Source of the DNA: a virus
Reading direction: 5' to 3' (one strand)
Virus record (IMG/VR): IMGVR_UViG_3300045988_069980
DNA length: 43,518 nucleotides
Positions 3,373 to 16,127 of the stretch are shown here, in pieces. Every line of letters begins with the position of its first letter. Within the stretch, counting starts at the first letter, position 1. The translations under genes and the position numbers were made by a program. The notes under the pieces were generated by a model. The model did not search any database. It had not been told where the DNA came from and worked only from the letters and a program-made list of their open reading frames with translations.

Positions 3373-3819
3373 CTATTCTTGTGTCTGCTCGGATGTGGTG
3401 TCTTTTTCAGCGCTATTGCCATTACTCGGAGCTGGTTTCGCTGCTTTCAGCGTAAACAGCCCCATGATTGCGGCAACAGCAATGCCGAATATAGCTGCGC
3501 CTATACTTGTACCAATATTACCTAAACCGCCAATTGCGAAAAGGACAATTAACGCTATGTACCACCACCGCAAGCAAATAGGTCTGCTATTAGTAACCGG
3601 CTTGCTGCTGCTTTTTGCACACTTTTTTCCGCTTCCAGAAATCTTAGTTGAATAGGATAACCCCGTGCCCGGAGCGGATGCCCTGACCCTTGCGCCGGTT
3701 TTGGAATTAAACGAAACACCGCCATATTTGCCGCCGATGCTCATACCTACGCTTTTTTTGCCGAAATTTAGCTTGACACCGGGCGCAATTTTTACGCTTT
3801 TGCGAAATCTGAACCCCAT
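3373..3819 (-). CDS. DUF4236-domain membrane protein (moron)
   Basis: N-terminus MGFRFRKSVKIAPGVKLNFGKKSVG...GLSYS is the DUF4236 pattern as recalled. C-terminal TM helices. Own promoter-like TTGTCT-17-TAGAAT on the minus strand. Confidence 0.7.
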   Translation of the reverse strand: MGFRFRKSVKIAPGVKLNFGKKSVGMSIGGKYGGVSFNSKTGARVRASAPGTGLSYSTKISGSGKKCAKSSSKPVTNSRPICLRWWYIALIVLFAIGGLGNIGTSIGAAIFGIAVAAIMGLFTLKAAKPAPSNGNSAEKDTTSEQTQE

Positions 3820-3990: not shown

Positions 3991-4512
3991 TTAATCTTCG
4001 ATATCCGCTTGTGTGTCAGCTATTAGATTATCAAGCAGCTTTTCAGCCTTTTCATAATCCTTTTCTTTCAGCGCCGCTTTCAGGTCTTTCAAATCCCTTG
4101 CAAGCTTCCTTAGATAACTTTTGAATACTGCTGATTTCCTTTCTGCCCTTTTATTTTTTTCTGCTATCCTCTTATTTCTCGTGCCATAGTTTGCATTTTC
4201 CTTCCTCGTTGTCCACTCTAAGTTATCAACCCGGTTGTTCGACTTGTTTTCGTCCTTATGGTTGACTTCTGGTAGATTAAACGGATTAGGCAAAAAGGCA
4301 CACGCTACAAGTCTATGCACATAATATGCTTTACAGCTTCCATTCTTCGACAGTCGGATTTGTGTGTATTTACATTCACCGCTTTGCGGTTCGACTTTCA
4401 AGAACTTTCCTTTGTCAACATCTTTGGCAAAACTTCGCACCCTGCCATGATTGCTGACTTGGTAAAGTCCTTCATACCCTTGAATGTCTTTCCATATCTC
4501 ATTCATCTGCAT
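3991..4512 (-). CDS. HNH homing endonuclease with NUMOD4 motif
   Basis: IWKDIQGYEGLYQVSNHGRVRS (NUMOD4) and VNHKDENKSNNRVDNLEWTTRKEN (HNH_3-type motif). Confidence 0.85.
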   Translation of the reverse strand: MQMNEIWKDIQGYEGLYQVSNHGRVRSFAKDVDKGKFLKVEPQSGECKYTQIRLSKNGSCKAYYVHRLVACAFLPNPFNLPEVNHKDENKSNNRVDNLEWTTRKENANYGTRNKRIAEKNKRAERKSAVFKSYLRKLARDLKDLKAALKEKDYEKAEKLLDNLIADTQADIED

Positions 4513-4615
4513 TGTCTCCCGAAAGCTTCATCATCAGCGTGTAATAGAAGCACAACTGATTTTCGCTCATTTCCTCGATCTGCTCAAGGATTGCGTTCTT
4601 GTAATAGTCTGCCAT
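4499..4615 (-). CDS. Conserved 38-aa ORF preceding and overlapping the endonuclease start
   Basis: MADYYKNAILEQIEEMSENQLCFYYTLMMKLSGDNADE. RBS aaaggtggct. A paralogue lies at 25736..25858. Confidence 0.55.
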   Translation of the reverse strand: MADYYKNAILEQIEEMSENQLCFYYTLMMKLSGDNADE

Positions 4616-4782
4616 GTGATAGCCACCTTTCTTTTGATTGTGGCTCTATTATATACCATTGCGCAAGTACATACAATCGACATAGTTACTAAAATCATGT
4701 CATTGCGTTAGTACATTTTGTACACTTGCGCAATTACAAATCAGGTGATACAATGTTGCAAATCTCTTGAAAGGTGGTAACA
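4616..4782. promoter_or_regulatory. Divergent promoter region with three copies of the operator motif TTGCG(C/T)(A/T)AGTACA
   Basis: Rightward promoter: TTGCGC (4726-4731), 17-nt spacer, TACAAT (4749-4754) with an upstream TG. Leftward promoter: TTGTAT (complement of 4671-4676), 17-nt spacer, TATAAT (complement of 4648-4653). Motif copies at 4659-4671, 4703-4715 and inverted at 4721-4733. All are conserved in copy B. Confidence 0.65.
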
Positions 4783-5097
4783 ATGGGAACGGCAAGAACG
4801 AAAGCAAATAATAAGTGGAATGCAAAAGCCTATGACCGCATTAACCTAACTGTTCCAAAAGGGCAGAAAGAAGAAATTAAAGCCCACGCAGAAAGCACGG
4901 GCGAAACCGTGAATGCCTTTATCAAACGGGCAATCATGGAAGTAACCGAAATGGACAATATGCACCGCGCATATCAGCGTGGGCTTTTGCGGCAGCTTGA
5001 AAAAGTAACGGCTGCGCTTGACAGCGGCGATAGCGAAAGCGCAAAACGGTTGATCGGCGAGCTGGTAGAAGATACGAAAGCGGATATAGTGGATTAA
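4783..5097 (+). CDS. Ribbon-helix-helix (Arc/CopG-like) DNA-binding protein with a C-terminal helical tail
   Basis: MGTARTKANNKWNAKAYDRINLTVPKGQKEEIKAHAESTGETVNAFIKRAI. RBS aaaggtgg is 6 nt upstream of the ATG. Confidence 0.7.
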   Translation: MGTARTKANNKWNAKAYDRINLTVPKGQKEEIKAHAESTGETVNAFIKRAIMEVTEMDNMHRAYQRGLLRQLEKVTAALDSGDSESAKRLIGELVEDTKADIVD

Positions 5098-5100
5098 AAG

Positions 5101-5131
5101 AAAAGGGGCAGACTTCGGTCTACCCCTTTTT
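5101..5131. terminator. Bidirectional terminator
   Basis: Stem GGGGCAGAC/GTCTACCCC (one mismatch), loop TTCG, flanked by an A-run and a T-run. Confidence 0.75.
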
Positions 5132-5132
5132 G

Positions 5133-5300
5133 CTATCCGTTTATCTTTTCTTGCAATTCCTCATAGGTGATGATGTCCTTGACATACAGTTCAAACAGCA
5201 CGTCTATATACTGCGCTTTGCGCTTCTTGTATTCTGCTTCGCTTATTTCCCCGGCCATAAGCCGCTTTTCAAGATGGCCTAATACTATGTTGCCATTCAT
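5133..5300 (-). CDS. 55-aa hypothetical protein (SHOCT-like helical peptide)
   Basis: MNGNIVLGHLEKRLMAGEISEAEYKKRKAQYIDVLFELYVKDIITYEELQEKING. Read manually because it is below the ORF-track cutoff. Confidence 0.45.
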   Translation of the reverse strand: MNGNIVLGHLEKRLMAGEISEAEYKKRKAQYIDVLFELYVKDIITYEELQEKING

Positions 5301-5356
5301 TTCTATTCCCCATTTCTTTCGTGGTTGATATAATCAGTAATATCAGCGGTTTGGTG

Positions 5357-5408
5357 TTATTAGTAGCATGACAAGCCTACTAAAATAGACTTATCAAGCT
5401 ACTAATAA
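5357..5408. other. Candidate attP core for the serine integrase
   Basis: Two 24-nt inverted arms: TTATTAGTAGCATGACAAGCCTAC and ATAGACTTATCAAGCTACTAATAA. The outer 11 nt are perfect. They flank the central TAAA, 20 nt from the 3' end of the integrase gene. Confidence 0.55.
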
Positions 5409-5427
5409 TGGCTAAAAAAATTAGCCC

Positions 5428-7002
5428 TTATTTGAAAGTGATTTCTAACACGGGCTTGCCGCCTTTGCTTCTGCCATAGTCGATAACATCATATCTGATA
5501 TCTTCAATAAATTCCTTCAAAAAATCGTTCTTTGCTTGTGCATCAAGCGCAGGGTCTTTGAACGTTTCAATGATTTTCTGCAAGGTGATGATTCGTTCGG
5601 AATAGTCAATGACTTCCGGCACGTCCGCTTTCGCCTGCGCAAGCTGCGCTTTCAGATCGGCAATTGATTGCGCGTAAACCTGCTTTCGCTCTATGAATTC
5701 TTCTTTCGTGTATACTTCATCTTCGTAATCATCAAACAGTTTTTTGCGCTTCTTTTCCAGCTTTTCAAGCTCTGCATCCATCCGCGATATTTTTTCAAGG
5801 TGGCGGGCGCGTTCGGCTCCGTTGCCGTCATGGTTCATCTTATATTCAAAATCTTCAATGTGGGCTTCCAGCGCTTCAACAAGCGCGTCAAACACGATTT
5901 CCACACGCAAAGACTTTTTCTTGCAATAGGCGCTTGCTTTATGCGAATAGCGGATTCCACGGCTATCCTTGTAATTTATCCAGTCCAAAGCTTTCCCGCA
6001 GTCAGCGCAGTGAATCAGACCGGCAAGGGGGCTGACAAGCTCTTTCCCGTGGTTAATCGGGTTTTTCTTGAATCGACCTTGCGCCTTTCGGAACTGTGCT
6101 TCGCTGATAATTGGCTTGTGTTTCCCATTGATATACTTGACTTCTTCCGGCGATGCTTGCACACGCTTTTTTTGAACTTTGCCTGTTTTCGGGTCACGCA
6201 CCTTAACCGTTTTGCTTTTTCCCCAAGTGATGATACCGATATACAGCTTGTTTTTCAGCATACAAGATATTGTTTCCTTATGCCATTCCCGACTACCTTG
6301 CATAGTCGGAATCCCCATGGAAGTAAACTGCTTTGCAATCCAATCGCATGACCGGTTTTCTTCCGTGAACCAGTCAAACATCATCTGCACAAGCGGCCGT
6401 TCTTCTTCATTGATGACAAGATAGCGGTTATCTTTGCTTTTCCGAACGATGTTATAGCCGAATACGCGCTGCGGAAGAAGATAGTTACCTTCAAGCACGG
6501 CCTGAAGCTTACCGGCTTCCAAGCGGCGGCGAATCGTCTTGAATTCACGGCGCGACATAAACAGACCGAATTCAAAATATTCTTGGTCGAATTCGTTGTC
6601 CGGGTCATATACCTTGACAGGGGTGATGATTTTTGTGTCGGACATCTGAAAAGCTTCCGCAACTTCGCCCTGATCTTTCGTATTACCACGGGCAAGGCGC
6701 TCGACTTCGACCACCAAAACACCTTTATATTTTTCGGCATAAACATCTTCAAGAAGCCGCTGCACTTCTGGCCTGTCCTGAATGCTTTCGCCGGACACAA
6801 TTTCCTGATAGATGGTTATCTGACTTGGAAGAATATCATGTCTTGCAGCAAGATTGAAAAGCATGGTTTTGTGCTTCGCCAGTGTTTCACCTTCGCCAAG
6901 GGCTTCCATTTCGATGTCTGCCCTTGATTTTCTAAGGTACATTGCATACTTGTCTTGTGTATATTGACTTATTACTTTTTCTGTTATTTGGTCTGTATTC
7001 AT
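5428..7002 (-). CDS. int: Large serine recombinase (phage integrase)
   Basis: N-terminal resolvase motif YLRKSRAD. Recombinase domain. Cys motif CADCGK...C, and a C-terminal coiled coil. Confidence 0.9.
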   Translation of the reverse strand: MNTDQITEKVISQYTQDKYAMYLRKSRADIEMEALGEGETLAKHKTMLFNLAARHDILPSQITIYQEIVSGESIQDRPEVQRLLEDVYAEKYKGVLVVEVERLARGNTKDQGEVAEAFQMSDTKIITPVKVYDPDNEFDQEYFEFGLFMSRREFKTIRRRLEAGKLQAVLEGNYLLPQRVFGYNIVRKSKDNRYLVINEEERPLVQMMFDWFTEENRSCDWIAKQFTSMGIPTMQGSREWHKETISCMLKNKLYIGIITWGKSKTVKVRDPKTGKVQKKRVQASPEEVKYINGKHKPIISEAQFRKAQGRFKKNPINHGKELVSPLAGLIHCADCGKALDWINYKDSRGIRYSHKASAYCKKKSLRVEIVFDALVEALEAHIEDFEYKMNHDGNGAERARHLEKISRMDAELEKLEKKRKKLFDDYEDEVYTKEEFIERKQVYAQSIADLKAQLAQAKADVPEVIDYSERIITLQKIIETFKDPALDAQAKNDFLKEFIEDIRYDVIDYGRSKGGKPVLEITFK

Positions 7003-7003
7003 C

Positions 7004-7615
7004 CTATAAGTTCCCGCCTTTTATATGATTTATAACATTGTTTGCAAAATCCCCTATATCCGAATGATCTTCAAGCCAGAAGAAGCCCACGCCTTTATTA
7101 AGAACGTCAACGACAATCGCCAGCATGATTATCGCAATGGCTATAAAGGCAACAATGCAGAAGATGTTGCGCCATTTTTTGCGGTCATCGGACGTTGCGC
7201 GGACTTTCCGCAATTCGTCCTTCATAAATTCCGTTTGTTTATCTGCGTCCTTTTTCACTTCTTCAAGACGCTGTTCCAGTTCCTGCTTTTCCTTTTCCAA
7301 CCGTTCAATGGTTTCAAGGTGCTTGCTTTCTTCAACGGCCACTTCTGGGCAAGGTGTTTCTTCGTTCCCGCAGCCAATTAGCGCACAAAACATGGGCGCG
7401 AAAGTAGAATAATAGACATCCCTGTCTTTCTGGGAAAGGGTGTTTTTGATTGTCCCTTCCTTTACGCCGGATTCATCCGAAAGGTCGGCATTCTTCCAGC
7501 CCAAAGCGGTCATGCGCCGCTTTGCGAAGTGTCGCATATCATTTAGGGGCATAATGTAGAAATTCGGTATGCAATCGCACCCTAAATGCTGGCAACTGAT
7601 ACATTTTTCGTACAT
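7004..7615 (-). CDS. Membrane-anchored protein with Cys-rich N-terminus, HTH-like segment, coiled coil and a TM helix
   Basis: CISCQHLGCDC; LGWKNADLSDESGVKEGTIKNTLS; EKEKQELEQRLEEVKKD; TM IFCIVAFIAIAIIMLAIVV. Its stop is 1 nt from the integrase ATG. Confidence 0.6.
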   Translation of the reverse strand: MYEKCISCQHLGCDCIPNFYIMPLNDMRHFAKRRMTALGWKNADLSDESGVKEGTIKNTLSQKDRDVYYSTFAPMFCALIGCGNEETPCPEVAVEESKHLETIERLEKEKQELEQRLEEVKKDADKQTEFMKDELRKVRATSDDRKKWRNIFCIVAFIAIAIIMLAIVVDVLNKGVGFFWLEDHSDIGDFANNVINHIKGGNL

Positions 7616-7789
7616 TTCTAGTCCTTTCCAATAACGGTGCTATCAGTTCCCTTATCGTGCCATAATTGCACGGATGTAGGGTTGCAGCATAATTATTCCA
7701 ATGATAGGCTGTTGGCAGGTCAAACAAGACCTATCAGCCCATACGAAGTGTGGGGGTGCAGTGTGGCAGCTACATCCCCACACGGAGTT

Positions 7790-8155
7790 TTATTTTAATC
7801 CCCGCTTATGTACAATGTACTTCGCATAATTGATAATTTCCCGGTTTTCTTCATCGGTAAATTCAATATGGCCTAATTCGCGGCACCATGTGTCCAAGTG
7901 CCGAATTTGCACACCTTCCGATGCGACAAACGTTGCAATCGTTTCTTCTTCCTTTGTGCCAAGCCCCATCAGATAGGACGGCGTTGTTTGCAGCGCAGAG
8001 GCAAGCGTTATAAGGATTTCGGAACTTACCTTGTCAATATCTCCGCTTTCATATCGGTAAACGGTTGATCGGTCTTTTCCTATCAGCTTTGCCAAACAGT
8101 CAGCCGACATCTTTAATTCAGTTCTCCGCGCTTTGATTCTGTTACCGATGTGCAT
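7790..8155 (-). CDS. XRE-family HTH repressor (CI-like)
   Basis: Start at ATG 8155, preceded by aaaggtggtga. HTH LAKLIGKDRSTVYRYESG. Has a C-terminal extra domain. Confidence 0.8.
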   Translation of the reverse strand: MHIGNRIKARRTELKMSADCLAKLIGKDRSTVYRYESGDIDKVSSEILITLASALQTTPSYLMGLGTKEEETIATFVASEGVQIRHLDTWCRELGHIEFTDEENREIINYAKYIVHKRGLK

Positions 8156-8224
8156 GGTTTCACCACCTTTCAAAAACGCCGTGTCGCAGCTCTGCGACAA
8201 AACCGCATGATGTAAAAATAAACC

Positions 8225-8253
8225 AGTATACAGAAAATTTCCTATGGTGTTAA
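8225..8253 (-). promoter_or_regulatory. Sigma-70-like promoter for the 7790..8155 repressor
   Basis: Minus strand: TTAACA, 17-nt spacer, TATACT. The palindrome GTCGCAGAGCTGCGAC lies downstream of it. Confidence 0.55.
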
Positions 8254-8301
8254 GATTCCGATGTAAGCAACTGATTCATTTGCAAGAAAGGATGTACCAA
8301 A

Positions 8302-8415
8302 ATGGAAAAAGCGCAGTACATACAAGAAATCAATGACTTGCTAGACAAATGCGCAGATATTGACTTGATCGAACTTGTCTATCAAATATTATTTAAGGCT
8401 TCCCGCAAACATTAG
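8302..8415 (+). CDS. 37-aa hypothetical ORF
   Basis: MEKAQYIQEINDLLDKCADIDLIELVYQILFKASRKH. Weak RBS aaagga. Confidence 0.3.
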   Translation: MEKAQYIQEINDLLDKCADIDLIELVYQILFKASRKH

Positions 8416-8783
8416 TCCAAAAGGGCATTCAAGCTTTTTCGTTTTTCAGAATCCATTTTGCTGATTTTTAATACAATAGATAGGAAGTCTTCGTCACTCC
8501 GCAATAGCAAAACGATGTCAGAAATGGCATCGTTATTTTTTTGCGCCTTTGGTCGTTCCATCGGGACATCATATCCCATAAGCCATTGTTCGGAAACATC
8601 CAGTGCTTTTGAAAGTTCATAAATAGGCTTGTTTTTTGGTTCATATTCGCCTGATAAATATCTACTTATCGCGCTGCGATTTATACCTGTTTCCCTTTCA
8701 AGATCAACTTGCTTTTTCTTCCTTATATTCATAGCTTCTCGCAATCTTTTTGCAACAGAAGCCACCTGAACAAAGTCCGGCAT
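8412..8783 (-). CDS. XRE-family HTH repressor (second, switch-proximal)
   Basis: Start ATG 8783 after aaaggtggtga. HTH LERETGINRSAISRYLSG. Confidence 0.8.
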   Translation of the reverse strand: MPDFVQVASVAKRLREAMNIRKKKQVDLERETGINRSAISRYLSGEYEPKNKPIYELSKALDVSEQWLMGYDVPMERPKAQKNNDAISDIVLLLRSDEDFLSIVLKISKMDSEKRKSLNALLD

Positions 8784-8981
8784 TGCAATCACCACCTTTC
8801 AGCCAATGCAAGGAAATATTACCACGTTAATTGCGAAAAAGCAATACATTTTTAATGCAATCGGAAATATGATTGCTAAATCACAATTTTTCTATTGACA
8901 TTATTGTGATATAGCATTATACTAAGCCCAGAAATTGAGGAAACGCAATTTCAAAGGCCAACAGGCAGAAAGGAAATTGAA
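8784..8981. promoter_or_regulatory. Lysis/lysogeny switch: divergent promoters and three palindromic operators
   Basis: Rightward promoter: TTGACA (8895-8900), 17-nt spacer, TATACT (8918-8923). Leftward promoter: TTGCTT (complement of 8839-8844), 17-nt spacer, TAATAT (complement of 8816-8821). Palindromes: ATTGCGAAAAAGCAAT (8830-8845), GCAATCGGAAATATGATTGC (8857-8876), and TCACAAT...ATTGTGA (8881-8909). Confidence 0.7.
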
Positions 8982-9290
8982 ATGAAATACATTCTTTACA
9001 TCGATTACAGCGCATCCTACAAGCCCATGACTGCCGAATATATTGCCCTGAACGCAAAGACCATCGCAGAAGCGATCATCGAAGCTGATGCAATACATGA
9101 CCAGAAAACGATGTACCTCATCAAGATCATGGAAAAGCGCGGCAAGATTGAAAAAGTTGAGAGCGATGTTAAAGCTCAAACTTACACGGCGATCATGGAA
9201 AAGCGCTCCACGAAGTGGGCAGCAGCAGAGACAAACCACAGCGCAAAGCACTTCATGGCGAAGTTCTGCGATTGGTTTGAAATCGCATAA
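8982..9290 (+). CDS. Hypothetical early protein
   Basis: First ORF after the rightward promoter. RBS agaaaggaa. Confidence 0.6.
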   Translation: MKYILYIDYSASYKPMTAEYIALNAKTIAEAIIEADAIHDQKTMYLIKIMEKRGKIEKVESDVKAQTYTAIMEKRSTKWAAAETNHSAKHFMAKFCDWFEIA

Positions 9291-9338
9291 AACAAAAAGC
9301 CGAAGGGCGGCGGCTAAACCGCCCGGAAAGGAAGCAAC

Positions 9339-9704
9339 ATGAAAGCAGTCAAGAAACCGTTTGTTGGTCAGTTGGTGCAGATTCCTGCATTTGAATTTGC
9401 TCCGATGCGTTCCGGCTGGAACGGCTGGATTTTTCGAGTTGGTGTTATTGAAAAGCTGTACATTTCCAAGAGCGGTAGAAAATGCGCAAAGGTACGCTAT
9501 TGCACCAAACGCGCCGGACGGTATCAGCTTCTTCCTTGCACCGAGTATTCCAAAGGCTTCGCTATCGAAAATGTGTTTCAGTGGGACAAGCTGGACTTCG
9601 CGCAAAAAACTTATTCCGAGTTCAAAGCAGCAGAGGACAGCGGCGAGCCTGTTTGCTGGGACGAAGATACAGCGTTTCTGCTACAAAACGGATACATTCA
9701 TTAG
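9339..9704 (+). CDS. Hypothetical early protein
   Basis: RBS ggaaaggaagc. Fits the operon spacing. Confidence 0.6.
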   Translation: MKAVKKPFVGQLVQIPAFEFAPMRSGWNGWIFRVGVIEKLYISKSGRKCAKVRYCTKRAGRYQLLPCTEYSKGFAIENVFQWDKLDFAQKTYSEFKAAEDSGEPVCWDEDTAFLLQNGYIH

Positions 9705-9722
9705 AAAGTGGGGTGGCGTAAC

Positions 9723-10001
9723 ATGACAACTGAGACAATGCTTTACCGGCGCTACAAGCAGCATTTTTCGGACTGTGAGGCGGTCGCAGGAAGCTACGAC
9801 AAGGAACGCAAGACCATCGAAGTTTTGCTTCCTGATGGCCGTCTGAAGCCTTCAGGCGTTCGCGGTCAGACCTTTAAGCACATGGAGTTCAGCGGAATCG
9901 AAAATGCGACCGGCCGCACGGTGCGCTGCACCATCAAGGCCACGTGCAGACAAAATGCAATCAAGCGGCTTCCAAAGGACTGCACATGGGATTTAAGATA
10001 A
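9723..10001 (+). CDS. Hypothetical early protein
   Basis: ATG 9723 after ggggtgg. Confidence 0.55.
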   Translation: MTTETMLYRRYKQHFSDCEAVAGSYDKERKTIEVLLPDGRLKPSGVRGQTFKHMEFSGIENATGRTVRCTIKATCRQNAIKRLPKDCTWDLR

Positions 10002-10019
10002 CCGGGAAGGAGAATAACG

Positions 10020-10247
10020 ATGCCAAACATAATAGAATCGACAATTGAAGTATTCAAGCCGAAAGCAGAAGCGCAAGCCTTGAAGCCTTGCCCCTTCTGT
10101 GGCGGAACTGAAATCGTATATGAACGCTATCTGCACATGGCCGGAGAACGGTACCGAGTATGGTGTGCGGACTGCATGGCCAGAGTTGACCCCGGATATG
10201 CACGGGACATTGGAACGGTGCAAAACATATGGAATCGCAGAGTATAA
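10020..10247 (+). CDS. Lar-family restriction-alleviation-like zinc-ribbon protein
   Basis: LKPCPFCGG...VWCADC...IWNRR pattern. Confidence 0.65.
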   Translation: MPNIIESTIEVFKPKAEAQALKPCPFCGGTEIVYERYLHMAGERYRVWCADCMARVDPGYARDIGTVQNIWNRRV

Positions 10248-10358
10248 GCCGAAACGGCCTTCATGGCCGTTCCTTAATGCGGCCTTATGTGAAAGCATGA
10301 GCAGGTTGCAAGCCCTGACAAACGCAGAGCAAGGAATTTACAGAAAGGAATGGTATGT

Positions 10359-10583
10359 ATGAGCTATAACAAGCTCCGTGGCAAAATCCGTGAGGTGTTC
10401 GGTACACAGGAAGCCTTTGCTGCTGCTATGGATATGAACACAGCAACGGTCAGCGGGAAGCTGAACGGAAGATCAGATTGGACTAGGGCAGAAATGGAAC
10501 TTGCCTGTTCCCTTCTTGGGATTTCCATGTTGGAAATGCATTCATATTTTTTTTGCCCCAAAAATTGCGAAAACGCAATTTAA
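10359..10583 (+). CDS. Small HTH protein (DUF739/Cro-like)
   Basis: LRGKIREVFGTQEAFAAAMDMNTATVSGKLNGRSDWTRAEM. Confidence 0.6.
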   Translation: MSYNKLRGKIREVFGTQEAFAAAMDMNTATVSGKLNGRSDWTRAEMELACSLLGISMLEMHSYFFCPKNCENAI

Positions 10584-10601
10584 CGAAAGGAGACGCAAAT
10601 C

Positions 10602-10838
10602 ATGGCAAGAGAACTTTTGGCAGATGACCAGTTGGAAGCGGAGATCAAGCGGCTGTCTGAATCGGAGTATGTCAGGCTTGCCCGGAAGGAAAACCGACTG
10701 AAGGTCGAAAAGCAGAAGCAAAAGCTGTATGTCCTTCGCAGCCTTGAAAAGCGCGGGAAAGAGCTTTCCGACATGGGAATCACTTTCGGCAACATCAAGG
10801 ATGTGATGTTCGACAAAGCGGAAGAAAGCGAGGACTGA
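10602..10838 (+). CDS. Hypothetical coiled-coil protein
   Basis: RBS aaaggag. Charged helical sequence. Confidence 0.55.
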   Translation: MARELLADDQLEAEIKRLSESEYVRLARKENRLKVEKQKQKLYVLRSLEKRGKELSDMGITFGNIKDVMFDKAEESED

Positions 10839-10842
10839 CGCA

Positions 10843-11025
10843 ATGGAAATGACCGTCACAAGGCTTCCGGATGGCGGTGTTCGCTATGAATCGGAAAAGG
10901 CCATTGTCACGATTCGTGAGCGTGGGCGGTACATCCGGGATGGGAAATTCACCGAAGAAGGGCTGAAAACCCTGAAAGAATCAGCAGCGAGAATGTACAT
11001 GGCGAAAGCGGTGTGTGAACGATGA
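10843..11025 (+). CDS. Hypothetical protein
   Basis: ATGA overlap with the next gene. Confidence 0.5.
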   Translation: MEMTVTRLPDGGVRYESEKAIVTIRERGRYIRDGKFTEEGLKTLKESAARMYMAKAVCER

Positions 11026-12182
11026 ACAAGCACCTTCCACATGATCTGAAGCAAATGCAAAGCCTTCCGCTTGAAGCAAAAATAAGAATGACGAAAGAGC
11101 GCATCGAAGCATGGTATGAATCGTGGTGGCGATATGAGATTTATGACAAGGCAACCGGCAAAACGCGCTTTGTAACATTCGACAATCGCGATTATTCAGC
11201 GACGCCACCGATGAAGGAAACCGAATTTATTGAATCAGCAATTCCGGGCGCTGTTTATGTCAGCTTCAGCGGCGGCAAGGATTCCACGGTGTTAAAGCAC
11301 ATTGTTGATTCCATGTATTCAGATGTTCCGGCCGTTTTTGTTAACACAGGCCTTGAATACCCAGAAATTCAGCATTTTGTCAGAGAGGTCAAAGCTGAAA
11401 AATATGGCTGCTTCAATCCTGATGTCGAAATTATCCGGCCTGAAATGCGGTTTGATGAAGTCATCAAAAAGTATGGCTATCCGGTTGTTTCAAAGCGCGT
11501 TGCCGGATATGTGGAAACAGCAAAACGGAATCCAGATAGCAAAAGGGCGAAATGGATTCGTGGTGAAGAATGGACAAAGTTTGTTACCGGTGGCAAGTGG
11601 GCTTTTTTGATAGATGCACCTTTTATGGTGTCTGCCAAATGCTGCGCCGTAATGAAACACAAACCGATCAACCAATATGGAAAGTTGACCGGAAGAAAAG
11701 CGATCATTGGCACGATGGCAACCGAAAGCCCTAACCGTGAACAGGCGTGGCTTGTTAATGGGTGTAATGCCTTTGAAGCAAAAACGCCGACATCGCAGCC
11801 ACTTTCTTTCTGGACTGAACAGGACATTCTTCATTACATCAAGGAATTCAATGTTCCATATTGCCCGGCATACGGCGAAATTAAGGTTGATGACAATCCA
11901 GAATTTGAAGGGCAAATAAATTGGATTGATTATCTGGAATGCTACGAACCGCAAGACCACCTTGTTACCACAGGGTGTAACCGCACGGGTTGTATGTTCT
12001 GTATGTTTGGATGTCACCTTGAAAAAGAACCGAACCGATTTCAACGCCTGAAGCAGACGCACCCAAGGCAGTATGAATACTGCATTTGTGGCGGCGAAAT
12101 GGTTAATGGGAAATGGCAGCCGAACAAAAAAGGGCTTGGCCTTGGTCATGTCCTTGACTACATAGGCGTGAAATACGATTAA
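11022..12182 (+). CDS. PP-loop ATPase of the PAPS-reductase superfamily (DndC/IbrA-like) with a C-terminal Cys cluster
   Basis: VSFSGGKDSTVLKHIV (PP-loop) and C-terminal TTGCNRTGCMFCMFGCH. Confidence 0.8.
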   Translation: MNKHLPHDLKQMQSLPLEAKIRMTKERIEAWYESWWRYEIYDKATGKTRFVTFDNRDYSATPPMKETEFIESAIPGAVYVSFSGGKDSTVLKHIVDSMYSDVPAVFVNTGLEYPEIQHFVREVKAEKYGCFNPDVEIIRPEMRFDEVIKKYGYPVVSKRVAGYVETAKRNPDSKRAKWIRGEEWTKFVTGGKWAFLIDAPFMVSAKCCAVMKHKPINQYGKLTGRKAIIGTMATESPNREQAWLVNGCNAFEAKTPTSQPLSFWTEQDILHYIKEFNVPYCPAYGEIKVDDNPEFEGQINWIDYLECYEPQDHLVTTGCNRTGCMFCMFGCHLEKEPNRFQRLKQTHPRQYEYCICGGEMVNGKWQPNKKGLGLGHVLDYIGVKYD

Positions 12183-12239
12183 AGCAAAGGGATGATAGGT
12201 GCTTTTTGACCTTAAAACATAGTGAAAGGTGAAAAAGCA

Positions 12240-13052
12240 ATGAAAGAATTCAAGAGTTTTTACAAGGAAGTCAAAGGAAACGAGGGCGGCAAATGCCGGT
12301 ACAACAAGCGTCTGGACACCTACGGCTGCGGCTGCGCCCATGATTGTTCATACTGCTATGCGAAATCCCTGTTGAGCTTTCGGGGCTTGTGGGACGCTGT
12401 AGAGCCGTCTGTGGCAAGCTTGGCGAAGATCGAGCGCAAGATAGCAAAGCTTGAACCGGGAACGATTGTCCGGCTTGGCGGTATGACGGATTGCTTCCAG
12501 CCGCTTGAACGTCGGGAGAGGGTCACCAAAGGCACAATCGAGCTGCTGAACAAGTACGGCATCGGCTATCTGATTGTCACGAAGTCTGACCTTGTATGTG
12601 AATACATGGATATTCTTGACAAGCAGCTTGCTCACATTCAGATCAGCATTACCTTTGCGCCGTGCGAAAAGGCAGTAAGCGTCGAAAGACGAATAAAGGC
12701 AGTAGAAATGCTGTTTGCTTCCGGTTTTGATGTGGCTGTCAGGCTTTCCCCGTACATTCCGCAGTTCGTGGACTTTGACCGGCTGAACGGTATCCGCTGC
12801 AACAAGATCATCGTGGAATTTCTCCGCGTGAACCATTGGATCAAGAAATGGCTTCCGCTGGATTATTCCGACTATACGGTCAAGCAGTCCGGCTATCAGC
12901 ATTTGCCACTGGAAAAGAAAATTGAATATCTGTCAAGGGTTACAGGCTTTGACGAAGTTTCCGTCTGCGAGGACGTTTCCGAGCATTACGAATACTGGAA
13001 AGAATGCGTGAACTTCAACAAAGAAGATTGCTGCAATCTTCGGAAAGGGTGA
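12240..13052 (+). CDS. Radical-SAM protein, SplB/COG1533-like
   Basis: GCGCAHDCSYCYAK (CxxxCxxC). RBS aaaggtga upstream of ATG 12240. Confidence 0.75.
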   Translation: MKEFKSFYKEVKGNEGGKCRYNKRLDTYGCGCAHDCSYCYAKSLLSFRGLWDAVEPSVASLAKIERKIAKLEPGTIVRLGGMTDCFQPLERRERVTKGTIELLNKYGIGYLIVTKSDLVCEYMDILDKQLAHIQISITFAPCEKAVSVERRIKAVEMLFASGFDVAVRLSPYIPQFVDFDRLNGIRCNKIIVEFLRVNHWIKKWLPLDYSDYTVKQSGYQHLPLEKKIEYLSRVTGFDEVSVCEDVSEHYEYWKECVNFNKEDCCNLRKG

Positions 13053-13128
13053 TCCGGTGCTGAAAAATATCATCCGCGCTTACAAGGCGTGGAAAACCAT
13101 CATGAAAGACGCGAAAGGAGAAAAGTAA

Positions 13129-13605
13129 ATGGCTTCCATCTATCAAATCCGCAGAGAAATTGAAGATTTTGAATATGAATGCGATCCCGAAACCGGCGAG
13201 CTTCTGAACGCGCTGGAATGGGACAAGCTGAACATGGCCTATGAAGAAAAGGTGGAAAACATCGCCTGTTTCATTAAGAACCTGACAAGCGACATTGCCG
13301 ACTTCAAGGCCGAAGAAGCGAACCTTGCTGCACGGCGCAAGACGCTGGAAAGAAAGGCCGAGTTTCTGAAGCGGCTGCTTCTGGACAACATGGACGGACA
13401 GAAATTCAGCACGGTCAAATGCGCCGTCAGCTTCCGGAAGTCCGAAGCCGTACAGGTTGATGATGTGAATCTTATCCCTGCGGAAATGCTTCGCGTCAAG
13501 ACAACCTATGAGCCGGACAAGACGGCGATAAAAGCGGCAATCAAGTCCGGGCGTGAAATTAACGGCTGCAAGCTGGTTGAAAACACCAGCATTCAAATTA
13601 AGTAA
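13129..13605 (+). CDS. Siphovirus Gp157-family protein
   Basis: MASIYQIRREIEDFE...coiled coil...AIKAAIKSGREINGCKLVE. Typical position upstream of a Sak4-like ATPase. Confidence 0.7.
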   Translation: MASIYQIRREIEDFEYECDPETGELLNALEWDKLNMAYEEKVENIACFIKNLTSDIADFKAEEANLAARRKTLERKAEFLKRLLLDNMDGQKFSTVKCAVSFRKSEAVQVDDVNLIPAEMLRVKTTYEPDKTAIKAAIKSGREINGCKLVENTSIQIK

Positions 13606-13618
13606 AGGAGCTGAAAAA

Positions 13619-14227
13619 ATGGGAATCCCGGTTTTGATTCTTGGCGAATCCGGCAGCGGCAAATCTGCCAGTCTGCGGAACTTCGAACCGGCTGACGTCA
13701 GCATTTTCAACGTGGCAGCAAAGCCCCTGCCCTTCCGGAAGAAACTGCCGATGAAGTCCACGGCGGACTACGGCACCATCCAGCAGGGCATACAGGCGAG
13801 CCAGAAGAAAGCTTTTGTAATTGATGACAGTCAATACCTGCTTTGTTTTGAAAGCTTTGCAAAGGCCAAAGAAACGGGCTACGGCAAGTATACGGATATG
13901 GCACTGCATTTTTACAACTTGGTGCAGTTCGTAATCCGGCAGACGCCGCCTGACGTGATTGTCTATTTCCTGCATCACACGGAATCAGACAGTAACACGG
14001 GCAAGGTCAAAGCAAAGACAATGGGCAAGATGCTTGACAATCAGTTGACCCTTGAAGGACTGTTTTCCATCGTTCTGATGGCTTACACAGACGGCAAAAA
14101 GCACATCTTTGTAACGCAGTCAGACGGCATGACCACGGCGAAAAGCCCGATGAAAATGTTCCCGGCCGAAATCGACAACGACCTGAAAGCCGTAGATCAG
14201 GCAATCAGAACCTACTACGAAATTTAA
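13619..14227 (+). CDS. AAA_24/Sak4-like recombination ATPase
   Basis: Walker A ILGESGSGKSAS. Walker B-like FVIDDS. RBS aaaggag. Confidence 0.8.
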   Translation: MGIPVLILGESGSGKSASLRNFEPADVSIFNVAAKPLPFRKKLPMKSTADYGTIQQGIQASQKKAFVIDDSQYLLCFESFAKAKETGYGKYTDMALHFYNLVQFVIRQTPPDVIVYFLHHTESDSNTGKVKAKTMGKMLDNQLTLEGLFSIVLMAYTDGKKHIFVTQSDGMTTAKSPMKMFPAEIDNDLKAVDQAIRTYYEI

Positions 14228-14247
14228 TTTGAAAGGAAATAAAAATC

Positions 14248-14853
14248 ATGATTAACAGACCAAAAAATTGGGATAACGTTCAGACATTCAGTGACAGACA
14301 GAAGCTTCCTGTCGGCGCGTATGTGTGCAAAGTCAAACAGGCGGTTGTACAGTCTACGGACTACGGCGATCAGCTCTGCGTGCTGTTTGACATCGTTGAC
14401 GGCGAATATGCCGGATATTACGAAAGTGATTTCACTTCCAGACAGCAGCAGGATAAGAAATGGAAAGGAATCCTTCGGCAGTTTCTTCCCAAAGACGATG
14501 GGTCTGAAATGGACGAATGGACGAAATCTTCTTTCAAGGGCTTGACCACGGCTTTCGAAAATTCCAACCGTGGCTATCAGTGGGATTGGGATGAAAAATC
14601 CCTTGTCGGGAAAGAAGTTGGCATCATCTACAGAAACGAAGAATGGGAATACAAAGGGAAAACAGGATGGACGGCAAGACCGTTCCGGGCTTGCTCTATC
14701 GACATTGTTCAGGATGGCAAATTCACAATTCCGAAGGACAAGCCGCTGAAGAAAAAAAGCACCGATACATATAGCCAGCCTACTTATTATGCGGAACAGG
14801 TTTCGCAAAACAGTTTTACGGAGCTGGACGATGACGGCGATCTGCCGTTCTAA
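14248..14853 (+). CDS. DUF669 SSB-like protein
   Basis: Acidic SSB-type tail DDDGDLPF. Synteny with Gp157 and Sak4. Confidence 0.7.
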   Translation: MINRPKNWDNVQTFSDRQKLPVGAYVCKVKQAVVQSTDYGDQLCVLFDIVDGEYAGYYESDFTSRQQQDKKWKGILRQFLPKDDGSEMDEWTKSSFKGLTTAFENSNRGYQWDWDEKSLVGKEVGIIYRNEEWEYKGKTGWTARPFRACSIDIVQDGKFTIPKDKPLKKKSTDTYSQPTYYAEQVSQNSFTELDDDGDLPF

Positions 14854-14868
14854 GGGGTGGGCTGCCGA

Positions 14869-15396
14869 ATGCGCGGAAGCACTTGGAATTCTGTTGATTT
14901 AAGTGGTCAGCGGTTTGGAAGATTGGTTGCCGTGGAAAGGGCTGGGCGTTCTGGCTGTGGCGCAACCATGTGGCTATGCAAGTGTGATTGCGGCAACTTC
15001 GTTTCCGTTCAGTATTCAAACTTAAAAAGTGGCGCGACAAAAAGCTGCGGGTGCTTGAACCGTGAAAACCGTGAAAAGAGAAACTATAAACACGGTGGAA
15101 GCCAAAGAGGTAAATGCGAACGCCTTTATAGGGTTTGGAGAGGAATGCAAGAAAGATGCAAAAATCCAAAGAGCATTTCATACAAGCACTATGGGGCTGT
15201 CGGCGTTTCTGTGTGCGAAGAATGGAATGATTATGCAGCTTTTAGAAGTTGGGCTATCGAAAATGGGTATGATTCATCGGCCAAAAGGGGCGAATGTACG
15301 CTTGATAGGATTAACCCATTTGGAGACTACTGCCCTGAAAATTGCCGATGGGCAAACATGAAAACGCAAAGTAATAACAAGAGGGTGAACAAGTGA
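14869..15396 (+). CDS. Free-standing HNH/AP2-like homing endonuclease
   Basis: LSGQRFGRLVAV...WLCKCDCGN...SCGC and DRINPFGDYCPENCRWA. Paralogue of 25845..26474. Confidence 0.7.
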   Translation: MRGSTWNSVDLSGQRFGRLVAVERAGRSGCGATMWLCKCDCGNFVSVQYSNLKSGATKSCGCLNRENREKRNYKHGGSQRGKCERLYRVWRGMQERCKNPKSISYKHYGAVGVSVCEEWNDYAAFRSWAIENGYDSSAKRGECTLDRINPFGDYCPENCRWANMKTQSNNKRVNK

Positions 15397-15773
15397 GCGA
15401 ATTTCTGAAAATACCTTATCCGAAGCATCCAGCAGAGCGCAAGCGCTGGAATAAACAGTTTGGAGTAAATGCTTATTATTCTGGGAAAGCATGGCAGTAC
15501 AGAAAGCGCGACGCTGAATTCTGGCACATGATGGTTCGTTCCTGCATGAACAGTCAGGATGTCCGGCGCGTACCATTCAAGCGGCCTGTTGTCATTACCT
15601 TTCATTGGAACGACCGGCTTGACATCGACAATCACGCAATCATGGGAAAGATGATTGTGGACGCAATGAAAGGACGTGTGATTGAAGATGACAGCCGCCG
15701 TTGGGTAAAAGGCGTTTGCCACTACTTCCACGATGGGGATTACATCAGCGTAGAAATCCGGGAAATTTCATAG
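15393..15773 (+). CDS. rusA: RusA-family Holliday junction resolvase
   Basis: GTG start after agagggtga. RLDIDNHAIMGKMIVDAMKGRVIEDD. Confidence 0.75.
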   Translation: MSEFLKIPYPKHPAERKRWNKQFGVNAYYSGKAWQYRKRDAEFWHMMVRSCMNSQDVRRVPFKRPVVITFHWNDRLDIDNHAIMGKMIVDAMKGRVIEDDSRRWVKGVCHYFHDGDYISVEIREIS

Positions 15774-15791: not shown

Positions 15792-16127
15792 ATGACAATC
15801 AATGAATATCAGTCGCTTGCCATGCGGACAAGCAATAAAGACCTGTCCCCTGATTATAGGCTACTGAATGGAGCCTTGGGGCTTGCCGGTGAATCCGGCG
15901 AAATTGCCGACCTTGTGAAAAAGAACTTTATGCAAGGCCACGTTCTGGATTTGGAGCACGTTGCAAAGGAATTGGGTGATGTGTGCTGGTACATCGCCGA
16001 GACTGCAACAGCTATCGGCCTTGACTTGGAAACCGTCATGCAGATGAATATTGAAAAGCTGCGGAAGCGCTACCCTGACGGGTTCAATTCTGACCGTTCG
16101 CAGCACAGGGAAGCAGGTGATATCTGA
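15792..16127 (+). CDS. mazG: MazG-like nucleotide pyrophosphohydrolase
   Basis: INEYQ...GLAGESGEIADLVKK...ELGDVCWYIA...NIEKLRKRY. Confidence 0.85.
   Translation: MTINEYQSLAMRTSNKDLSPDYRLLNGALGLAGESGEIADLVKKNFMQGHVLDLEHVAKELGDVCWYIAETATAIGLDLETVMQMNIEKLRKRYPDGFNSDRSQHREAGDI

Follow-up and report, generated by a model that had tools for sequence, protein, structure and literature searches.

A PAPS-reductase-like gene and a spore photoproduct lyase-like radical-SAM gene as probably independent cargo of a temperate gut siphovirus

Gp53 of Pseudomonas phage M6, a spore photoproduct lyase (SPL)-like radical S-adenosylmethionine (SAM) isomerase by which N-alpha-glycinylthymidine in DNA becomes C-alpha-glycinylthymidine (Lee et al., NAR 2022, PMC8989533), is according to its authors the first known radical-SAM enzyme to install a DNA modification (PMC8989533), and no other was found in the literature. 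Related splB-like genes of COG1533 are SOS-regulated repair genes in non-sporulating bacteria and count among the core SOS genes of Bacteroidetes and further phyla (PMC8565304; PMC3765255). Proteins with the fold of 3'-phosphoadenosine 5'-phosphosulfate (PAPS) reductases take part in phosphorothioate systems, which are prevalent in gut bacteria (PMC12914056) and in all known cases require an ATPase and DNA-recognition partners for synthesis (including PMC12914056); in addition, the PAPS domain of a phage was shown genetically to confer anti-Dnd activity (10.1101/2021.05.05.442762), and PAPS reductases are found in Aca-regulated anti-defence operons (PMC13551039). Here, we analyse a locus where a gene of each kind, a PP-loop/PAPS-reductase-fold gene (gene A) and an SPL/gp53-like radical-SAM gene (gene B), lie next to each other in the IMG/VR virus record IMGVR_UViG_3300045988_069980, a stretch of 43,518 nucleotides (the window; annotated by open reading frame (ORF) and Pfam scans) that represents the ~43.5-kb genome of a temperate siphovirus of gut Clostridia.

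An original prediction made from the sequence alone had placed the two genes 57 nt apart and proposed that they form one module modifying phage DNA or tRNA to evade restriction. Both genes are present as described, and it still holds that no described pathway pairs a PAPS-reductase fold with an SPL-like radical-SAM enzyme, but the locus gives no evidence for one. On balance, we favour reading A and B as two independent accessory genes in an anti-restriction and recombination hotspot: each would be individually mobile, and their adjacency would result from insertion of both into one variable slot of the early operon, which elsewhere holds DNA methyltransferases and other counter-defence cargo. 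Had A and B proved a genuine pair, they would have been the sign of a DNA-modification pathway not yet described; instead, the locus appears as a modular "cargo slot" of gut temperate phages, in which single counter-defence or repair genes are exchanged.

Distribution of A and B across phages and bacterial genomes

Loci were sampled as the 80 best matches of each scan, not as random draws. An A homologue lies within 6 kb of B in 10 of 80 viral loci anchored on B, and nearby in 4 of 80 B-anchored loci from bacterial genomes. Conversely, B is found in 9 of 80 viral loci anchored on A (about 89% are without it), and in none of these where the A homologue is less than 55% identical. Extending the profile search to PAPS-like ORFs of any kind within 4 kb of B gives 16 of 160 loci, leaving 90% without one. 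A neutral sample was anchored on the adjacent ATPase gene and comprised 57 loci with at least 4 kb of upstream sequence; both genes are present in one locus, only A in three, only B in eight and neither in 45 (Fisher p = 0.51), i.e., B occurs in 9 of 57 (16%) and an A-like gene in 4 of 57. Co-occurrence thus shows no excess beyond chance, an outcome that the original prediction had itself named as refuting it; together with the single-gene indel described below, this leaves the proposed two-gene module unsupported.

Near-identical phages differ by presence or absence of a segment that carries A (Table 1). In a blastn comparison, loci L002 and L003 follow the window (at 99.7% and 99.4% identity) as far as position 11009; the match is taken up again at 12183, with about 21 nt in place of 11010-12182; as they lack exactly this segment, A is a precise one-gene cassette between a 60-aa ORF and the leader of B. 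In A-less phages, the 60-aa ORF has a different end and is followed directly by B's leader, which corresponds to the 57-nt A-B spacer of the window (junction alignment), and B in L002 and L003 is still 94-95% identical to that of the window. The reciprocal state is displayed by L083 and L084, which have kept A (76% identity) and have no B, a YqaJ-type recombination module following straight after A. Among phages with both genes, some have a C5 methylase or other genes in between (A-B gaps of 750-1559 nt), and about 10 loci show the close arrangement with 40-70 nt between A and B. These observations make it highly probable that A and B are independent of each other, and the natural near-isogenic variants (A+B+, A-B+ and A+B-) offer a direct way of testing what each gene does.

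Table 1 Features of the window around genes A and B
Feature	Position	Strand	Remarks
Large serine recombinase	5428-7002	minus	
Two helix-turn-helix (HTH) repressors			
Candidate early promoter of the rightward operon holding A and B	8895-8923	+	TTGACA-17-TATACT; consensus scan only
Lar restriction-alleviation gene	10020-10247	+	upstream in the A/B operon; Pfam Lar_restr_allev E 2.8e-10, exceeds cut-off
DUF739 gene	10350-10583	rightward	early operon; small ORFs nearby
60-aa ORF	10843-11025	+	stop overlaps the ATG of gene A (ATGA)
Gene-A cassette, present or absent between near-identical phages	11010-12182	+	blastn, L002 and L003
Gene A, stand-alone PP-loop/PAPS-reductase-fold protein, 386 aa	11022-12182	+	Pfam, PHROG, AlphaFold2 (AF2) model
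PP-loop ATP-pyrophosphatase motif SFSGGKDST	11262-11288	+	A residues 81-89
Cys-Cys pair, first half of the CC...CxxC Fe-S-type motif	11640-11645	+	A C207-C208; invariant
C-terminal Cys cluster CNRTGCMFCMFGC	11976-12014	+	A residues 319-331
A-B spacer, 57 nt	12183-12239	+	ribosome-binding site AAAGGTGA at 12225-12232, 8 nt ahead of the B ATG
Gene B, stand-alone SPL/M6-gp53-like radical-SAM protein	12240-13052	+	270 aa from ATG; alternative upstream GTG start at 12222
Radical-SAM cluster motif CAHDCSYCY, C32-x3-C36-x2-C39 with Y38 and Y40	12333-12359	+	B residues 32-40
C-terminal DCCN motif	13026-13037	+	B residues 263-266; conserved
Gp157	13129-13605	+	Pfam E 1.9e-34
Downstream recombination module (Gp157, Sak4-like ATPase, 201-aa ORF)	13129-14853	+	

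Predicted properties of the two proteins

The assignment of A to the PP-loop group of the PAPS-reductase superfamily, already made in the original prediction, is borne out by Pfam PAPS_reduct (PF01507; E 4.5e-24, 85.9 bits against a cut-off of 22.5) and by the phrog_424 profile (E 7.5e-49), and the motifs named there for A and B (SFSGGKDST, CNRTGCMFCMFGC and CAHDCSYCY) are all present. In the PP-loop motif, S81, S83, G84, G85, D87 and S88 are invariant among 22 homologues down to 46% identity, and the motif residues are likewise invariant in a set of 30 homologues. The Cys-Cys pair of A aligns with the CC of Pseudomonas aeruginosa adenosine 5'-phosphosulfate (APS) reductase (2goy), and in the C-terminal cluster C324 and C327 (C324-x2-C327) are invariant among the aligned homologues, with C331 replaced by Ala or Ser in some of them (L141, L147 and L159). 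From the alignment of the CC pair with that of APS reductase, together with the CxxC, A carries a CC...CxxC pattern of the APS-reductase/DndC type, predicted to form an iron-sulfur (Fe-S)-type site. Other invariant positions, in alignments down to 46% identity, are a GCN (C248) and C354. Residues 36-74 (window 11127-11243) form a lineage-specific insertion of ~39 aa with predicted beta-strands, placed between an N-terminal helix and the PP-loop domain and seen in 3 of the 22 aligned homologues only.

The AF2 model of A (predicted local distance difference test, pLDDT, 87.1) retrieves CysH and APS reductases first in Foldseek (E ~1e-6), followed by the sulfurtransferases TtuA and LarE; the TM-score normalised to A is only ~0.35, because A has additional N-terminal, internal and C-terminal elements. 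In comparisons with the curated NCBIfam models for CysH, APS reductase and CysD, A falls widely below all cut-offs (47.6/154 bits for NF002537, 38.7/165 for TIGR00434, 41.8/235 for TIGR02055 and 28.5/254 for TIGR02057; score/cut-off). Members of the CysH family carry a C-terminal catalytic cysteine motif, ECG[LI]H. This motif is absent from the 386 residues of A, in which the closest stretch is FGCHLE, with a cysteine that is not conserved. The earlier label "DndC/IbrA-like" is not supported: A matches none of the DndC models (NCBIfam at E <= 0.1; PADLOC at E <= 0.01), and DUF3440 (IbrA) was not found in it, Pfam at E <= 0.1 returning PAPS_reduct and a sub-threshold DUF7411. PADLOC gives weak matches to SspD (7e-8) and BrxP (3e-7), confined to the PP-loop region, and there is no ParB-like (IbrB-type) gene among the window ORFs scanned. 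Weak NCBIfam matches to TilS, TtuA and NcsA (E 0.015-0.09) might suggest tRNA modification, which ranks below a DNA-related reading of A because of its gene neighbours.

Homologues of A, annotated and 33-45% identical, occur in cultured phages of Clostridium perfringens, Clostridioides, Ruminococcus, Enterobacter and Vibrio. The one in a Ruminococcus phage lies between portal and head-protease genes and that in phiCP34O close to the portal gene, and others adjoin SNF2 helicase and N6_N4 methylase genes. Clustering of neighbouring ORFs reveals no conserved partner, as neighbours vary across the 80 A-anchored loci and no family is present in a majority; methylases, Lar, recombination or packaging genes make up its company, and never sulfur-assimilation genes. 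By sequence, A is therefore best described as a further member of an already annotated solo phage family, one more PAPS-reductase-like gene of this kind with a candidate role against the phosphorothioate-based defences of the gut.

The radical-SAM and SPL-like nature of B is likewise upheld. B meets the Pfam Radical_SAM model (PF04055; 34.3 bits against a cut-off of 29.5), and across 33 sequences, reaching down to 32% identity, Y38 and C39 never vary and C32, C36 and Y40 are at least 90% conserved. Four additional cysteines—C19, C243 and, within the DCCN motif, C264 and C265—are each at least 90% conserved in the same alignment of the wide family, which suggests a candidate second metal or Fe-S site. 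An AF2 model built from the 33-sequence alignment (pLDDT 94.1) finds SPL in all of the top six Foldseek matches against the Protein Data Bank (PDB) (E 7e-9 to 3e-8; query-normalised TM 0.60-0.65), the next family, biotin synthase (E 8e-4), being five orders of magnitude weaker. SPL is also found by the B family profile against the PDB (E 1.8e-6), and a phmmer search with the single B sequence gave no match there; among viral predicted structures, Foldseek returned unnamed or generic radical-SAM matches only. The best NCBIfam matches, over the radical-SAM core, are the PA0069 family (NF033668, E 7e-22) and radical SAM mobile pair protein B (TIGR04470, E 2.5e-17). In the window, B has no other radical-SAM gene beside it, nor is one among the commonest neighbour families of B loci.

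The B family counts thousands of sequences (5,336 matches in a protein search clustered at 90% identity) and has no cultured-phage representative; the subfamily of B itself is compact, with 79 clusters at 50% identity and E < 1e-30 among 1.84 billion representatives. It is nearly absent from GenBank phages (four uncultured gut records), and its prophage hosts are chiefly gut Clostridia (Hungatella, Blautia, Coprococcus, Eubacterium ramulus and Ruthenibacterium) and also Bacteroides and Prevotella. Plasmid searches, with A as with B, gave distant matches only (23-34% identity). Homologues of B at 55-62% identity are also carried by likely conjugative elements of Clostridia and Bacteroides (L261, L275, L282, L287, L293, L300, L307-L309 and others, at about 4000-9600 in locus coordinates), with TraG/VirB4-type P-loop ATPases, SpaA/SdrD-type surface proteins of 1000-1280 aa, sortase, DUF5697 and ArdA as neighbours, so that the B family is not phage-specific. 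The literature yielded no functional study of DUF1848, "radical SAM mobile pair" or "SPL family radical SAM" proteins.

The variable slot and its genome setting

The slot occupied by A and B comes after small early genes (Lar, DUF739) and before the recombination module. Directly upstream of B, 118 non-redundant loci have a C5 methylase in 10 cases, PAPS_reduct in 9, a TraG/VirB4-type conjugative ATPase in 8, an N6_N4 methylase in 5 and varied genes in the rest, with YqaJ or no gene at all at this position in some phages; downstream, 105 loci have Gp157 (11), YqaJ (8), DUF1351 (7), ParB_N (7), C5 methylase (5), SSB (3) and ArdA (1), and B is directly ahead of recombination genes in about 30 of the 105. 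Here too, clustering of neighbouring ORFs identifies no family in a majority of loci. On mobile elements, B is thus an optional gene without a fixed partner, bordered by anti-restriction genes to one side and by recombination genes to the other.

Some of the genes beside B homologues deserve mention in their own right. PAPS-like genes of 236 aa (L038:5230-5940 and L040:5230-5940) and 281 aa (L069:5101-5946), very divergent, lie 55-61 nt from the B start. A 384-aa protein with sub-threshold ABC-ATPase/AAA and GNAT matches is encoded directly upstream of B in L071, L073-L076, L079 and L080 (L080:4274-5428). In L325-L328 (in L325, methylase 4697-6004 and radical-SAM 6001-7008) and L329-L331 (in L329, methylase 5285-6028 and radical-SAM 6001-6867), the gene of a distant B homologue (39-42% identity) shares 4 or 28 nt with the 3' end of an N6_N4 methylase gene, hinting at translational coupling; these pairs stand in two unrelated contexts, ahead of a small terminase gene and past a tape-measure gene. 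An apparent enrichment of methylases beside B (2 of 9, against 2 of 48 B-less sister loci; 29 of 133 B-anchored loci) was rejected, as the methylase seeds had been drawn from the surroundings of B and A, an ascertainment bias, and the counts are low. Another distant B homologue, in a phage, lies among ribonucleotide reductase (RNR), PDDEXK, SbcCD-like and HIRAN genes. In L322 (6001-7937) and L323 (2646-4582), a 364-aa B-family protein with a faint DUF1848 match is followed 3 nt on by a PUA-like and HNH nuclease, in a small integrase-bearing element, possibly as a modification-dependent restriction pair.

The window as a whole is apparently an essentially complete, circularly permuted phage genome, ordered as tail genes, integrase and lysogeny module, and then structural genes to the end. 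A near-identical viral contig exists (IMGVR_UViG_3300045988_054702; 44,055 bp; L001/L081), with A 100% and B 95% identical to the window, and a near-identity DNA search of GenBank phages gave as sole match 230 nt at 74% in an unannotated gut phage and no annotated close relative. The candidate promoter (Table 1) is the best site of the consensus scan within 8000-15500, with 11 of 12 consensus positions, and there is no convincing terminator between it and genes A and B. Of the two Lar-like genes named in the original prediction, one is confirmed and the other not. The recombination genes said to follow B fared unevenly: Gp157 stands, the adjacent Sak4-like ATPase has a sub-threshold AAA_24 match only (Pfam E 6.8e-5), and the 201-aa ORF, taken earlier for DUF669, has no Pfam match at E <= 0.01. 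In sister phages, the Gp157/ATPase module is exchanged for YqaJ/RecT-type modules, with B present or absent. The early region continues with RusA, MazG, a replisome organiser and a G39P-like loader, and then terminase and structural genes. The MazG-type nucleotide pyrophosphohydrolase gene (15792-16127), right after RusA in the early operon, could bear on nucleotide pools or defence signalling. The minus strand between tail genes and integrase carries a homing-endonuclease-like gene with NUMOD4 and HNH_3 (3991-4512) and a DUF4236 gene (3373-3819).

Possible roles, alternatives and relation to known systems

Each gene taken singly is a credible nucleic-acid-acting accessory, given the Lar gene upstream, the methylases in the same slot, the anti-Dnd PAPS precedent and the DNA-modifying gp53; this much of the anti-restriction idea survives, without the two-gene module. 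Most likely, A would act on nucleic acid, with an ATP-dependent activation step and subsequent Fe-S-mediated sulfur handling. It may act in counter-defence, e.g., against the phosphorothioate-based Dnd, Ssp or BREX-4 systems of gut hosts, as suggested by the anti-Dnd phage PAPS domain, the PAPS reductases of Aca operons and the commonness of phosphorothioate systems in the gut. It would probably need host partners: having no ATPase and DNA-recognition partners of its own, it would either recruit components of the host or work in another way. B would direct 5'-deoxyadenosyl radical chemistry at DNA, reversing or remodelling a covalent alteration already in the DNA of the element, as a stand-alone enzyme would have to act on something already there, be it a lesion, a canonical base or a host- or phage-modified base. 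For B, protective or anti-restriction remodelling is the leading candidate, if a tentative one; damage repair feeding the adjoining recombination genes follows closely behind, and some other role is unlikely.

Several points weigh against this reading of two independent counter-defence or repair genes. Three divergent PAPS-like lineages (the A family, the 236-aa and the ~281-aa proteins) each lie directly upstream of B in some phages, and the recurrence of PAPS-like genes at this position exceeds the genome-wide per-gene background, which could hint at a facultative link. About a third of the close A homologues (at least 55% identity) are accompanied by B, somewhat above the 16% of the neutral sample, although these loci are phylogenetically non-independent. 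Furthermore, this reading does not account for the four additional conserved cysteines of B; binding of DNA, ATP, SAM or Fe-S by either protein is a prediction from sequence; and a solo PAPS reductase beside an ATPase goes with no phosphorothioate in a Bacteroides isolate (PMC12914056), which argues against A alone phosphorothioating DNA. As methylases behave likewise, we read the recurrence of PAPS-like genes upstream of B as a property of the slot, and facultative cooperation of A and B appears to have a very slim chance of being real.

The original proposal of a single nucleic-acid modification pathway, in which, for example, A would activate and deliver sulfur and B supply radical chemistry, so that modified phage DNA or tRNA evades restriction, is highly improbable. 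It could draw on the co-oriented adjacency of the two genes, 57 nt apart in one early operon, on the recurrence of the 40-70 nt arrangement, on the three PAPS-like lineages immediately upstream of B, on the possible auxiliary Cys4 site of B, as in sulfur-inserting radical-SAM enzymes, and on the view of some authors that DndC uses SAM-radical chemistry (cited and questioned in PMC10853773). Set against this are the 90% of B loci without a PAPS-like gene and ~89% of A loci without B, the random association in the neutral sample (Fisher p = 0.51), the clean gain or loss of A beside a B that stays 94-95% identical, the methylase genes between A and B in some phages and the A homologues at unrelated genome positions of B-less phages. 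It is also very unlikely that A is an auxiliary metabolic gene, i.e., a true CysH-type PAPS/APS reductase boosting assimilatory sulfate reduction of the host during infection. Its Pfam and PHROG names, the PHROG category ("moron, auxiliary metabolic gene"), the CysH and APS reductases as best structural matches and a CC...CxxC pattern resembling that of APS reductases would fit such an enzyme, but scores far under all CysH/APS-reductase cut-offs (e.g., 47.6 vs 154 bits), the missing ECG[LI]H and non-conserved C331 of the sole Cys-His-like stretch, the TM-score of ~0.35 and a neighbourhood of methylases, Lar, recombination or packaging genes, never sulfur-assimilation genes, speak otherwise.

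That B is purely a DNA-damage repair lyase of the SplB/COG1533 type, repairing the DNA of prophages and integrative and conjugative elements at SOS-triggered induction, with no anti-restriction role and methylase neighbours by coincidence, is doubtful, if less so than the preceding alternatives. SPL is the sole solved structure strongly similar to B, the Tyr-x-Tyr of its radical relay is kept as Y38 and Y40, and like SPL, B needs no partner genes; splB of COG1533 belongs to the core SOS genes of Bacteroidetes and further phyla (PMC8565304; PMC3765255), and recombination genes right after B in about 30 of 105 loci, as well as the SbcCD-like, PDDEXK, RNR and HIRAN company in one distant phage, are consistent with repair. 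On the other side, the H-donor Cys140 of SPL is Gly81 in B, the SPL NCBIfam score is 19 bits against a cut-off of 400, and B is nearer the DNA-modifying gp53 than SPL; moreover, the ultraviolet-type spore photoproduct is irrelevant in the anaerobic gut, where many hosts (Bacteroides, Prevotella) are non-sporulating, and B is optional (16% of related phages) in a slot where methylases, Lar and ArdA are enriched. On a more far-reaching reading, which we regard as unlikely, B would define a widespread family of stand-alone radical-SAM enzymes that modify DNA or erase its modifications in phages and conjugative elements of the gut, partner-free relatives of gp53 with an auxiliary Cys4 site that act on canonical or methylated bases and defeat restriction, and might, where a PAPS-like gene is present, cooperate with it in an as yet undescribed kind of sulfur-dependent DNA modification. 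What is observed here are the genes with their motifs and folds, the independent assortment of A and B, the boundaries of the cassette and the homology of B to gp53, whereas substrates, chemistry and biological role are inferred.

A shares with DndC, SspD and BrxP the PP-loop fold and a predicted cysteine-ligated Fe-S-type motif. In contrast, their partners, the ATPase (DndD, SspC or BrxC) and DNA-recognition protein (DndE or SspB), were not found near A, which in the window is surrounded by small early genes, B, Gp157 and the AAA_24-like ATPase, and the Vibrio phage anti-Dnd protein is a PAPS-Dam fusion whereas A is solo. A belongs with the solo phage proteins of phrog_424 (e.g., Clostridium phage phiCP34O gp07, Ruminococcus phage NatCom_29429 and Enterobacter phage Tyrion), 33-45% identical over at least 97% of its length and moron-like as A is; none is characterised, and those of the Ruminococcus phage and phiCP34O lie in the head-morphogenesis region instead of the early operon.

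In SPL, the radical relay runs through Tyr96/Tyr98, and the H-atom donor is Cys140 in G. thermodenitrificans and Cys141 in B. subtilis. SPL (SplB; PDB 4fhc and others; TIGR04070) is the best solved-structure match to B, and its CMGHCHYCY aligns with CAHDCSYCY of B, both tyrosines of CxxxCxYCY being shared. The two are 15-17% identical, B having the four additional conserved cysteines; the Cys140 position (Ser or Ala in mutant entries) is Gly81 of B in the profile alignment, C85, four residues past it, is not conserved in the wider B family, and B scores 19 vs 400 bits with TIGR04070 and 14 vs 437.55 with TIGR03886 (score vs cut-off). Working without partners is a further point in common, SPL being a solo DNA enzyme; the hosts of B, in contrast, are gut anaerobes that include non-sporulating bacteria. 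The SplB-like proteins of COG1533 (PA0069 family NF033668, Rv2578c family and TIGR04470) are uncharacterised and presumed to act in DNA repair, some of them on mobile elements; B reaches 77.9 bits with NF033668 (cut-off 360) and 63.2 with TIGR04470 (cut-off 410), and it differs from mobile pair protein B in having no adjoining radical-SAM "pair protein A" and a C-terminal DCCN motif of its own.

No characterised protein found here is closer to B than M6 gp53. The B family aligns with it over 253 columns (hhalign probability 98.6%, E 1e-15), B itself matches it by BLASTP (E 1e-9; identity only ~21%), and at equal database size the family profile gives 55.4 bits to gp53 and 30.7 to SPL (hmmsearch). 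Both proteins are phage-encoded and have CxxxCxxC-Y and TD(C/P)F-P-E in common, and C19, C243 and C264/265 of B have counterparts in gp53 (RARPC, TCYE and DQC). However, gp53 is the longer protein (480 aa, against 270 aa for B), with extensions at its N and C termini that are missing from B, and it operates in a hypermodification cluster with a thymidylate-synthase-like deoxyuridine monophosphate (dUMP) hydroxymethylase, a 5-hydroxymethyldeoxyuridine (5-hmdU) DNA kinase, aGPT-Pplase and a pyridoxal phosphate (PLP) decarboxylase. A tblastn search with M6 gp48-gp59 against the window and 160 B loci gave the gp53-B match only, homologues of gp51, gp52, gp54, gp55 and gp58 being absent, and Pfam scans of the window ORFs found no 5-hmdU pathway genes; as these partner genes are missing, B cannot perform the reaction of gp53. 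The B family, abundant and uncharacterised in gut phages and conjugative elements, is thus nearer to the only known DNA-modifying radical-SAM enzyme than to SPL, without the pathway in which gp53 works, and on its sequence B is a new, putatively partner-free variant of the SPL/gp53 lineage.

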